Position numbers and translations under genes: made by a program. The notes beneath the pieces are model-generated. The model was not told the origin of the DNA. It was given only the letters and a program-made list of their open reading frames with translations, and made no database searches. A stretch of 64,000 bases of DNA from Octopus vulgaris (lineage: Eukaryota): the NCBI GenBank assembly GCA_951406725.2, contig OX597840.1:18538001-18602000 (forward strand), in the 5' to 3' direction. Within the stretch, counting starts at the first letter, position 1. The number at the start of each line of letters is the position of its first letter. This document shows, piece by piece, positions 24,240-47,799 of this stretch.

Positions 24240-24715
24240 TTGGGTCATCCCATAAATAATGACGTTTTTTTTATCAATTGCATAAACGTTGGAGTGGGAT
24301 GGGATAAGCTACCTCCATTGACCTGCTATAAAAGCAGGTAGTAATTTTACCTTGTATCCTTATTCTTAGTGCAAGTTTTGAAGAGTGCAGTTCGATTTTA
24401 AAACTTATTTTTTCAAAGCTATAATGGAAATGACAAAGGAGTATATTTGGCATATTTTGCTTTATGAGTTCAATGAAGGCAACCACACAAGGGAAAGTGA
24501 GAGGAATATTAATGCAGTATATGGGGATCGGACAATAAGTGTAGGCCAGTGTCAATGGTGGTTTCAGAAATTCCGAGCTGGAATCTACAGCCTAGAAGAC
24601 GAACCTTGTCCTGAAAGGAGGAGCCTTGCAAGTCTATCAGACAGATGGAAGAGCATTGTAGAAAATGAAGGAGAATATATTTTAGATTAAAAAAGAACTT
24701 TAGATTAAAACAGAA
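24240..24715 (+). mobile_element. Internally deleted mariner
   Basis: TA-flanked left end. MEMTKEYIWHILLYEF...WFQKFRAG..SLEDEP is fused directly to the C-terminal RWKSIVENEGEYILD*. Confidence 0.85.
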
Positions 24716-26047: not shown

Positions 26048-27642
26048 AACTCTATAAGATGCACCAAGTGTAAGCTATGGACACATAAGAGGTGCAGCAA
26101 TATCAAAGGAAGGCTAACTAGGAAGATGGTTTTTGTATGTGGCAGATGCTCAGGAACAATTAACACTGAAAATGCTCTGAGACCAACTTCCGTCACTTTC
26201 CAGGGAGAAAAGCTAGAAGTAGTTGATAGTTTCCGTTACCTAGGTGACCAAGTCAGTAGCGGGGGCGGGTGCGCTGAGAGTATAACTGCTAGAGTAAGAA
26301 TAGCCTGGGCAAAGTTTAGAGAGCTCTTACCTCTGCTGGTGACAAAAGGCCTCTCGCTCAAAGTAAAAGGCAGACTGTATGATGCATGTGTACGTGCAGC
26401 CATGCTACATGGTAGTGAAACTTGGGCTGTGACTGCTGAGGATTTGCGTAAGCTCGCAAGAAATGAAGCTAGTATGCTCCGATGGATGTGTAACGTCAGT
26501 GTTCATAATCGACAGAGTGTAAGTACCTTGAGAGAAAAGTTGAACCTAAGAAGCATCAGTTGTTGTGTGCAAGAGAGACGTATGCGCTGGTATGGTCATG
26601 TGATGAGAATGGCTGAAGATAGTTGTGTGCGAAAGTGCCACACCCTGGCAGTTGAGGGGACCTGTGGAAGAGGTAGACCCAGGAAAACCTGGGTCGAGGC
26701 GGTGAAGCATGACCTTCGAACTTTAGGTCTCACCAAGGAAATGACCAGTGACCGAGACCTTTGGAGGTATGCTGTGCGTGAGAAAACCGGGCAAGACCAG
26801 TGAGAACAGTCAAAATCAAGATCAAACCAAATTGAGGTCGATCAACATCAGGGCACCCGTGCAGGTGACACGTAAAAGTACCATCCGTTCGTAGCCATTC
26901 GCCAGCCCTGTCTGGCCCCCGTGTAGGTGGCACGTAAAAGCACCATCCGTTCGTGTTCGTTGCCAGCCTGGCCTGGCCCCCGTGCCGGTGACACGTAAAA
27001 GCACCATCCGTTTGTGGCCGTTTGCCAGCTCTGTCTGGCCCCCGTGCCGGTGACACGTAAAAGCACCATCCATTCGTGGCTGTTTGCCAGCCCTGTCTGG
27101 CCCCCATGTTGGTGACATGTAAAGCACCATCCGTTCGTGGCCGTTTGCCAGCCCTGTCTGGCCCCCATCGGTGACATGTAAAAGCACCATCCGTTCGTGT
27201 CCGTTTGCCAGCCCTGTCTGGCCCCCATGTCGGTGACATGTAAAAGCACCATCCGTTCGTGGCAGTTGCCAGCCTCGCCTGGCCCCCGTGCCGGTGACAC
27301 ATAAAAGCACCATCTGTTCGTGGCCGTTTGCCAGCCCTGTCTGGCCCCCGTGTCGGTGGCACGTAAAAGCACCATCCGTTCGTGTCCGTTGCCAGCCTCG
27401 CCTGGCCCCGTGCCGGTGACACGTAAAAGCACCATCCGTTCGTGGCCGTTTGCCAGCTCTGTCTGGCACCTGTGCAGGTGGCACGTAAAAAGCACCCACT
27501 ACACTCACGGAGTGGTTGGCGTTAGGAAGGGCATCCAGCTGTAGAAACACTGCCAGATCTGACTGGGCCTGATGAAGCCTTCCAGCTTCACAGACCCCAG
27601 TTGAACCGTCCAACCCATGCTAGCATGGAGAACGGACGCTAA

Positions 27643-45090: not shown

Positions 45091-46183
45091 TTATTGTTGT
45101 GAAAATTTTGCTATGTATATATCTTTTCTGTGTTTAATTCCTTTTTGTCTAAGTATATATGTATATATATGAGTGGCTGTGTAGTAAGTAGCTTGTTTAC
45201 CAGCCACATGGTTCTGGGTTCAGTCCCACTGCGTGGCACCTTGGGCAAGTGTCTTCTACTACAGCCTCCAGTCAACCAAAGCCTTGTGAGTGGATTCGAT
45301 AGATAGAAACTGAAGGAAAAGGCGGCAAGCTGGCAGAATCGTTAGCACGCCGGGCGAAATGCTTAGCAGTATTTCATCTGTCTTTACATTCTGTGTGCAA
45401 ATTCCGCTGAGGTCGATTTTTGCCTTTCATCCTTTCAGGGTCGATTAAATAAGTACCAGTTACGCACTGGGGTTAATATTATCGACTTAATCCATTTGTC
45501 TGTGCTTGTTTGTCCCCTTGTGGGTAGTAAAGAAATAAGAAACTGAAAGAAGCCCGTCGTATATGTATTTGTATTTGTCCACCCCCAACATCGCTTGACA
45601 ACCAATGCTGGTGCAGTTATGTTCCCGTAACTTAGCGGTTCAGCTAAAGCAACCAATAGAATAAGTACTAGGCTTACAAAGTATAAGTCCTGAGGTCGAT
45701 TTGCTCAACTAAAGGCGGTGTTCCAGCATGGCCACTGTCAAATGACAGAAGCAAGTAAAAGGATATATATATATATATATATCATCACCATCGTCGTTAT
45801 TGTTTATCGTTTCATTTGTGGCCATGCTGGAGCACTGCTTTGAGGGATTTTATTTTATAGTTAAATAATTCAACCCTATTATTTATGTGTGTCTAAGCCT
45901 GGTACTTATTCTTTCAGCTGCAGTCAAATGATTGAAGCATAAAAGAATATATATAAATGTAAGGGTCAAAGTGTAGGAAGTAAGTGAGTTTCAAGCAATC
46001 CAGAGGAAATATAAAAACAACTTTCAGGAACAACAGTAGTTTATTGGTGCGGAAGGTGGTGAATTTTTCCAATATTGAAGTATGATAAGCTGATAAGAAT
46101 TTCATATTTCAAGGTTGGCAGCCAGGTTCATCAGATATGCAAAAAAAAATCCACAAGTTAAGGAATGGAGCAGATAAAATCCA

Positions 46184-46267: not shown

Positions 46268-46749
46268 AAGGGTATCTTGATTATTTTGCTTTGTCCATAC
46301 CAAAACATAGAGGATTTGACCAGAGTGCAATATATATATATATATATATAGTTCTATATTTAAGAGATGAGGAATTATTTACATTCGACGGATATTTGTC
46401 CTCATCTTGTTTGTTGTTAACACAACGTTTTGGCTGATATACCCTCTAGACTCCATCAGGTGTCTTGGGGAAATTTCGAACCTGGGTTCTCATTCCTAAG
46501 GTATTTTTCGATATTATTATTATTATTGTTGTTAGTATTCAGGTCACTGCTTGGAATCAAACTCGGAATCTTGGGGTTAGTAGCTTGCGCTCTTATATGT
46601 AGTTAAGATTATAGTAGTTAAGATTGCGGGCTACTAACCCCAAGATTCCAAGCAGTGACCTGAACACTAACAATAATAATAATAATAATAATAACAACAA
46701 CATCGAAAAATAACTTAGGAATGAGAACCCAGGTTCAAAATTTCCCCAA

Positions 46750-46795
46750 GACACCTGAAGAAGGCTGGAGGGTATATCAGCCAAAACATTGTGTT
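46750..46795 (+). ncRNA. Minimal hammerhead motif (G12->A), right arm of inverted element
   Basis: GACAC-CUGAAGA-A-GGCUG-gaggguauau-CAGCC-aAAAC-AUU-GUGUU. The mirror copy is at 46419-46464 on -. Confidence 0.6.
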
Positions 46796-47799
46796 AACAA
46801 CAAATAAGATGAGGACAAATATCCATCGAATGTAAATAATGTATATATATATATATGTGTAAATAATGTATGTATATGTGTGTGTGTATATGTTTATGTG
46901 TGTATGTGTTTATATATATATATAAATACTGAACTTAGCAGTTCAGCAAAAGAGACCGATAGAATAAGTACTAGGCTTACAAAGAATAAGTCCTGGAGTC
47001 ACTTTCTTTGACTAAAACCCTTTAAGGTGGTGCTCCAGCATGGCTGCAGTCAAGTAACTGAAACGAGCAAAAGAATAAGAGACTAATGCTAAAAACCTAT
47101 TCGCAAAGTAAACTCCTTCCCTCCTTGCCCTCCCACCCTATTTACAGCTAATGTGTTGCCTTGGAGAAGATAGAATGGTAAGACAAGAGCATTGCATCAT
47201 TCCATTTCTTGTTTCCCTTCATAAAGTCTTAGAAATTCCATCTGAAGCCATGTGTTCAATCAAAGGAAATCAATAATATTGTAAGGCTTCGCAATTTTAG
47301 AAAAAACAATAGAAGAAAAACAGCAACAAAAATAATAAAATGAAATCAGGAAAAAAATACTAAACAAAAATACTACAAAATGCATACAACTAACCTTTCA
47401 TTTAAATTTAAGAAAAAAAAATTTTTTTTTTCAAACTGACGATAATCAATAACTTTAATCAATTAACTCAAAATCAATAAAGTTGATCATGTGTGGAAAT
47501 TCAGAAATTGATATCAATACCTACTTTGTTTAAGAATCATAGTAAATATATAACACCCCCACCCACTCTGCTGTGCGTTCCATTCCACCACCACTCTCTT
47601 ATCATCATCATCATCGCTGTCCCTAGATACTCTTATATATACACACTCACATCTGGTGTATATATTCAGGAATAACAGTGCAGTCAAAGAAAGTGCCCTT
47701 TGTGTTTGTTATAATTCCATACACACACACAACACACGTATATATATATATATGTATATGTATGTATGTATATGCACATACATACATGAAAACACAGAT

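Follow-up and report, generated by a model that had tools for sequence, protein, structure and literature searches.

A tRNA-like head in the pseudo-LTR of an abundant octopus Penelope-like retrotransposon, viewed from a probable decayed head-to-head insertion

Within a stretch of 64,000 nucleotides of the Octopus vulgaris genome (assembly GCA_951406725.2, contig OX597840.1; hereafter the window, with positions counted from its first letter) lies a palindrome in which each arm combines a tRNA-like segment, a simple repeat and a hammerhead ribozyme motif. A preliminary description of this locus, made from the letters alone, interpreted it as a Pol III-driven, SINE-like element that had acquired a Penelope-type ribozyme tail, and hence as an unusual chimera duplicated back to back. 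The question that the locus raises is whether its parts do constitute such a chimera or belong together in a larger element, and what the tRNA-like part does there. Judging from comparisons of sequence, we think it probable that the palindrome is one decayed insertion, made of two 5'-truncated pseudo-LTR (pLTR) copies of an abundant Penelope-like retrotransposon that lie head to head.

The palindrome in the window

An inverted-repeat search places the two outward-facing arms at 46374-46595 and 46619-46840, their inner pieces being separated by 23 nt, as originally reported. The arms are made up of three pairs of inverted pieces: 46374-46539/46675-46840 (166 nt, 91%), 46512-46558/46644-46690 (47 nt, 96%) and 46562-46595/46619-46652 (34 nt, 85%, 23 nt apart); a second comparison gives a single inverted match of 494 columns (81%, E 1e-140). 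The original limits stand for the repeat, and the element goes beyond them: the left arm extends to 46351, and in the right arm homology to the family begins at about 46612. The palindrome is the sole copy of this Penelope-like family within the window, and the order described for it, reading outward from a tRNA-like head through (AAT)n to a hammerhead, is seen in each arm. Its features are as follows.

46330-46350, no strand: (TA)n target, left flank, read from the sequence.
46351-46373, minus strand: Penelope "tail" extension, in the left arm only; it encodes ORF residues, and a second RT start site is inferred here.
46374-46493, minus strand: left arm, start codon at 46493 and first Penelope ORF codons with one internal stop; 49% identity to the N-terminus of homolog P0003 (tblastn); runs on into the ORF in L168 and L174.
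46419-46464, minus strand: left minimal type I hammerhead, broken by A9>G, by G12>A at 46431 and by damage to stem II.
46512-46537, minus strand: (AAT)n run, left arm.
46541-46595, minus strand: left tRNA-like head from about its position 20; A box lost, B box at 46553-46564 with CpG decay.
46596-46618, no strand: degenerate head-to-head junction; 12-nt direct repeat 46599-46610/46614-46625, with the usual palindromic centre of the family lost.
46612-46661, plus strand: right tRNA-like head from about its position 13; A box degenerate, B box gone via a 12-nt deletion between two GATTCC repeats.
46665-46702, plus strand: (AAT)n/(AAC)n run, right arm.
46721-46840, plus strand: right arm, start codon at 46721 and first Penelope ORF codons; 52% identity to the N-terminus of P0003 (tblastn); ends at the first RT start site without a tail (short end class).
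46750-46795, plus strand: right minimal type I hammerhead, broken by G12>A at 46783 and by loss of the stem III palindrome at 46788.
46842-46856, no strand: (TA)n target, right flank, read from the sequence.

The decay of this copy exceeds what had been described. The B box of the right arm is indeed absent, and to this must be added the absence of the A box from the left arm and its degeneration in the right; neither arm retains both promoter boxes. Both ribozyme cores are broken: the AAAAC that had been noted in place of GAAAC (the G12>A change) is present in both arms, and it is accompanied by A9>G on the left and by the loss of the stem III palindrome on the right. In both arms, moreover, the ORF frame is interrupted by a stop. 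Such a copy would be inactive as a promoter and as a ribozyme, and its transcription by Pol III is unlikely. Its target site duplication (TSD) is not delimitable because a 15-nt AT repeat is common to both flanks.

Some further features of the window deserve mention. A 27-nt tandem duplication (46831-46884, 85% identical) comprises the end of the right arm and the TA repeat, and is possibly due to slippage or to repeated priming at the RT start site. Copies of another, far commoner short repeat lie on both sides of the element (45629-45765, 45818-45921 and 46932-47077), and many more occur elsewhere in the window. At 24382-24687 there is a fragment of a Mariner/Mos1 transposase helix-turn-helix (PF17906, E 6e-17), and at 26048-27619 several long overlapping open frames of 216-265 aa, which have no Pfam match, occupy a GC-richer repeat.

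An autonomous element with paired, truncated ends

When the left arm was used as a query against the genome (2.8 Gb in 227 contigs), 2409 candidates were returned, 40 of which were scored. Exact matching revealed 2232 intact hammerhead cores, 4372 copies of a 20-mer in the tRNA-like head and 351 perfect palindromic head-to-head centres; each of the reversed patterns used as controls had 0 matches. Head and hammerhead are thus linked in thousands of genomic copies, and chance nesting of the two is excluded because both were present in 24 of the 30 loci selected through the head and in 19 of the 30 selected through the core. The median divergence from the family majority is 9.4% (102 pieces of at least 400 nt), with G>A and C>T dominating the changes, as CpG decay would lead one to expect. 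There is local structure in this divergence. Four adjoining ORF-bearing copies at 7.9-9.1 Mb (L062, L063, L064 and L065 on G000:C1) are 99% identical to each other, against the roughly 9% divergence of the family, which suggests a recent local duplication or conversion. On a 12-Mb contig (G000:C31), many near-identical truncated copies (L145, L149, L150 and L152-L154) have stops and a junction in common and are part of a larger repeated unit.

The ribozyme of the family is in better condition than that of the window. Among 70 arms that were not picked on the core, G12 is represented by 54 G, 15 A and 1 T, so that the majority reads GAAAC, and the attribution of the AAAAC cores to CpG decay is borne out; the core is kept in 40 of these 70 arms. 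The CUGANGA and GAAA core elements, a short stem I and a palindromic stem III are all present in the family majority, in which stems I and II fold, and the claim of a Penelope-type minimal hammerhead tail is supported. Searches of the window and of the copies tried against Rfam returned no hammerhead. By its sequence the family ribozyme is of the minimal type that would depend on dimer formation. In the accessible text of PMC4209133, the minimal hammerheads of metazoan Penelope-like elements (PLEs) are described on opposite strands 100-700 bp apart, with a 5-bp stem I, an extra unpaired base before stem II and a palindromic, loop-less stem III; the family ribozyme is no different, although both window copies are core mutants. 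Ribozymes are unmentioned in the accessible text of a recent octopus repeat annotation (PMC13282606). The schistosome repeats Sm-alpha and Sj-alpha, in the accounts available, likewise combine a tRNA-derived, Pol III-type promoter with a hammerhead that follows it in a short repeat (PMC6765202, PMC2770079); however, Sm-alpha does not code for protein, is often arranged in tandem and bears a canonical hammerhead, whereas the octopus head belongs to an autonomous element and its copies lie head to head.

That autonomous element becomes visible upstream of the head, where several copies carry decayed coding sequence for an RT thumb and an endonuclease. An ORF precedes the head in L003, L007, L059, L062-L065 and L068, and in most of the loci picked by RT protein. 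The best preserved, L156, has an open RT-EN frame of 569 aa whose stop lies about 40 nt before the head. This frame scores 27.7 bits against Pfam RVT_1, just below the cut-off of 29.6. Of 7990 candidates scored against it, 2735 are homologous at E<=1e-30; the homologs listed show 35-68% identity (the closest 55-68%) and include PF00078, PF28514, PF26215 and some PF01541 matches. A GIY-YIG-like motif was read in it by eye. In L168 and L174 the tail continues directly into the frame, and the window arms, translated from 46493 and 46721, are the ones that resemble the N-terminus of P0003, a homolog of 847 aa. Because of L156, L168, L174 and these arm translations, the order in other copies can be given as the RT/GIY-YIG frame and its stop, then, after about 40 nt, the tRNA-like head containing A and B boxes, followed by (AAT)n, the start codon, the hammerhead, the tail and the rest of the frame. 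The sequence after (AAT)n, hammerhead included, encodes the N-terminus of the protein; the hammerhead sits inside the first 90 coding nt, and of 22 full-length homologs one has the peptide that it encodes. Most of the elements extending as far as the ORF start (L206-L235) end 5' in the body or at (AAT)n, the full upstream head being found only in L209, L210 and L231. Pfam searches with three short ORF pieces yielded nothing useful, and a PDB search had 0 matches.

A single ORF with a PLE-type RT followed by a GIY-YIG endonuclease, and a pLTR at both ends that includes the first codons, identify an endonuclease-bearing (EN+) Penelope-like element, which to judge from its domain order may belong to the Penelope/Poseidon clade. 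The unit that had been considered a separate SINE-like chimera is thus the pLTR and first codons of this element. The same architecture is in print, as far as the accessible texts go (PMC3846280, PMC8557442, PMC4209133, PMC11167929), and the layout of the pLTR equals that of Adineta Pen2a (PMC3846280) and Anolis PAc (PMC11167929).

The paired arrangement of the window is a general habit of the family. Of the loci picked by the core, 15 of 30 have an inverted partner no more than 700 nt upstream, and of those picked by the head, 22 of 30. Among 57 head-to-head pairs, the tail is found on one arm in 46, on neither in nine and on both in two, and in a second count 35 of 45 pairs were discordant for the tail against 21.6 expected. 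The 3' ends of the family fall at two fixed sites inside the PLE coding sequence, and the loose ends of contigs from runs of organism A and three others gather at these two sites as well. Of 46 pair rows, in which one locus is counted twice and the window's own AT repeat is included, 25 are bordered by direct repeats of 8-15 bp, against 17 of 1000 mismatched controls. In 38 of 42 pairs the two arms agree in the core N7 variant, where shuffling gives 30.2; the two window arms differ at N7 and form a pair of the discordant kind. Which arm reaches further 5' is independent of the tail (20 long, 15 short, 11 equal). An inverted, 5'-truncated copy with a one-sided tail and a short TSD is therefore the rule in this family, and the suggestion that the inverted duplication is a product of Penelope-type integration is well founded.

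Inverted pLTRs with a one-sided tail, TSDs of 8-10 bp and junction palindromes are described in the accessible texts of PMC3846280 and PMC8557442, and two RT start sites that account for the tail, together with a hammerhead dispensable for insertion in vitro, in that of PMC11167929. We propose that the endonuclease of the element would cut AT-rich DNA on both strands at points offset by about 10-13 nt, and that each target end would then prime reverse transcription at either of two internal start sites separated by about 30 nt, both cDNAs usually being copied from one RNA or from the RNA of one master. Priming at the site closest to the 5' end of the RNA would give a short cDNA that runs off at the head; its end could fold back on a small GCCC/GGGC palindrome and be joined to the second cDNA. 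The product of such joining would be an outward-facing pair with the tail on one arm, and the hammerhead is probably unneeded for insertion.

The tRNA-like head and the likely start of the element's RNA

Among 30 genomic tRNA loci the head aligns best to tRNA-Arg (z about 8 over shuffles), and in the family majority the A and B boxes are intact and the cloverleaf is not. No tRNA was called in the window or in the copies tried, either by ARAGORN (down to a 75% threshold) or by Rfam; the miRNA matches that Rfam returned were dismissed as hairpin or microsatellite artefacts. The 5' boundary of the short copies lies at position -6, counted back from the head, at a G after T about 13 nt before the A box. 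In 68 of the 69 heads not scored as ORF-linked (of which at least 4 are ORF-linked copies mis-scored through indels), the match to the upstream flank of the autonomous element extends over no more than 7 nt, and those 5' ends that lie further upstream are scattered through the frame. A Pol III start would be expected at just such a G, about 13 nt upstream of the A box. The tRNA-like sequence is a built-in part of the pLTR; it likely marks the start of the element's RNA and likely also acts as the element's promoter.

A second property of the element concerns runs of four or more T (T4). On the sense strand of the 2684-nt majority unit, which contains two artefacts (one base in the frame near position 1850, and 9 nt of the alignment ahead of its last hammerhead), there are none, against 5.0 expected from base composition (P 0.0075) and 2.8 from synonymous shuffles (P 0.031); runs of TT and TTT are near expectation. 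Four other RT families of the genome have 1.7-5.3 T4 runs per kb, and all four have them in the longest frame, as do 23 of 24 PLE families from metagenome contigs (28/78 loci with a long enough frame). When a second Penelope family was sought in the genome to serve as a T4 control, the loci retrieved appear to be of the same family. Nevertheless, the argument from T4 absence is only weakly significant: runs of four or more G are missing as well (0 against 3.2 expected), a second-order Markov control gives P 0.22 and one PLE family, L237, lacks T4 in its frame as well. This single exception among the 24 is the closest of them by best-segment identity (48%) and has no tRNA head; it lacks T4 over about 2 kb of coding strand (L237:2700-4708) but has a T-rich pLTR. 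A pair of A and B boxes within 600 nt after the longest frame was found in 0 of these 24 families, many of whose contigs end early. A tRNA-like piece upstream in L252 was considered as a parallel and rejected, since T runs follow it and its surroundings are other repeat DNA.

Initiation by Pol III at the head is suggested because the RNA would start 13 nt before the A box and the unit has no T4 runs, and on this evidence we lean slightly towards it; Pol III transcription is plausible for the family. The more complete scenario, in which an autonomous Penelope had its promoter replaced by a tRNA-derived A/B box, would be transcribed by Pol III from end to end (about 2.7-3 kb) and translated uncapped, the short copies being run-off products, is as a whole unlikely. 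Family sequence is contained in contigs assembled from runs guessed to be RNA, contigs which show neither strand, start, level nor editing.

The strongest alternative has the identity of the pLTR in common with the explanation that we prefer and differs from it only in the promoter step. In it the tRNA-like piece would be a passenger, an old SINE head captured in the pLTR; transcription would be by Pol II or by read-through, and the 5' ends would pile up through hairpin-triggered self-priming of the cDNA. We regard this as possible, if somewhat on the unlikely side. A hairpin of -9.6 kcal/mol does span the boundary in a read-through RNA, but the ends are found beyond the inner hairpin (-6) and not on its near side. 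Uncapped Pol III RNA makes a poor message, and L237 shows that a PLE can lack T4 without a tRNA head; yet T4 runs are present in the remaining 23 PLE families and in all four of the other RT families. A passenger would not obviously retain both boxes, which are intact in the majority despite the lost cloverleaf, nor occupy half of the approximately 165 nt that separate stop from start codon. The passenger reading can also draw on precedent: self-priming palindromes are described without any tRNA (PMC3846280, accessible text), and the promoter of D. virilis Penelope is, in the account available, TATA-less, LINE-like and internal (PMC2377424).

Set beside other EN+ PLEs with pLTRs, as they appear in the accessible descriptions of Adineta Pen2/Pen2a (PMC3846280), Anolis Poseidon PAc (PMC11167929) and D. 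virilis Penelope, the octopus family has in common with them a single frame of RT and C-terminal GIY-YIG type, first codons within the pLTR and a hammerhead overlapping the ORF start. The inverted 5'-truncated pLTR, one-sided tail, short TSD, AT-rich targets, junction palindrome and two RT start sites are common to all as well. In rotifer Penelopes the palindromes at the 5' ends of the pLTR are accompanied by a TATA-like motif (PMC3846280). The octopus family differs in that its non-coding pLTR is a tRNA-derived A/B-box head with (AAT)n, instead of a TATA/Inr or LINE-like promoter, in that the whole unit is without T4 and in that no intron was seen in the element. Helenus, Ajax and Cassandra, as described in the accessible text of PMC10886601, also have a promoter derived from a small RNA gene in a terminal repeat, but these are non-autonomous LTR elements whereas the octopus family is a protein-coding PLE. 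What appears to be new here is the tRNA-derived pLTR in an autonomous Penelope element, the type of insertion being already known; no such A/B box in an autonomous Penelope pLTR was found in open-access main text, and Repbase, Dfam or Ohshima and Okada 1994 could already name the family.

Short copies and what they may mean

The preliminary reading corresponds to an independent SINE, a short tRNA-headed unit whose solo copies would be transcribed by Pol III and would spread from one another by means of Penelope proteins in trans. The head 20-mer has 4372 exact copies against 1080 for the 20-mer just upstream, but an excess of short copies is expected if priming takes place at the RT start site in its 5' copy. 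A and B boxes are present in the unit and a terminator is not, and an internal RT start would leave no flanking 3' sequence; yet the autonomous element carries the same head, and the body of the unit is ORF sequence. Short copies come to within 1.4% of the majority, against 4.5% for ORF-linked copies, and the medians are 5.7% and 7.0%; this shorter distance could reflect a later, SINE-like spread or an effect of picking. Three non-CpG variants are equal in both classes (20/42 and 19/49, 6/42 and 11/53, 9/35 and 10/45). When 44 ORF-linked copies were compared with 53 short ones (31 short copies from the best-hit set being left out against bias), 0 of 22 variable columns separated the two classes (lowest p 0.06; small sample).

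A tRNA-derived SINE would have a head with A and B boxes, as the family does (incompletely in the window copy), but it would also constitute a distinct non-autonomous lineage, of which this small sample gives no sign, and would have a LINE-derived 3' end with a poly(A) or simple-repeat tail, which is absent here. An independent SINE is, in our estimation, quite unlikely. The simplest reading is that the short copies come from the same masters, via priming at the RT start site closest to the 5' end of the RNA; some secondary spread from solo copies is possible. Short pLTR-derived, non-autonomous units that depend on PLE proteins are known from the accessible texts on non-LTR retrozymes (bioRxiv 10.64898/2026.07.22.740005) and on MRC1-type PLE derivatives (PMC8557442). 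Retrozymes are defined there as tandem arrays, and in the accessible text of the preprint tRNA is unmentioned; the octopus copies are in contrast dispersed inverted pairs with no separate lineage detected, the locus itself being an inverted pair and tandem units being rare in the sampled loci.

Cephalopods edit RNA heavily, and the two arms, if co-transcribed, are predicted to fold into a long hairpin (-317.6 kcal/mol), but the idea that the host retains the palindrome as double-stranded RNA, for instance as an ADAR substrate, is hardly credible: an inverted partner accompanies about half to three quarters of the sampled copies through the insertion mechanism, the arms have decayed independently and suffered a deletion, a scan covering 85 of the window's 136 frames revealed no host exon and re-inserted family copies show no excess of A>G (1.54 against 2.08 per 100 for T>C).

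The locus itself is ordinary decayed repeat DNA, and its interest lies in the family to which it leads. A repeat that would be annotated here as a SINE is the end of a Penelope element, which is a warning for annotation. The late steps of Penelope integration have left a record in thousands of short insertions; their one-sided tails, the variants common to both arms and the duplications of 10-13 bp fit a model of two start sites and two-ended priming, which is testable in the published in vitro system. Pol III is not known to serve mobile elements other than non-coding ones. If the promoter reading is true, the family would depart from this pattern as a retrotransposon that encodes a protein and is driven by a tRNA promoter, and one would have to ask by what means its RNA is translated; a Penelope transcribed by Pol III would also show how an autonomous element can give rise directly to a SINE.
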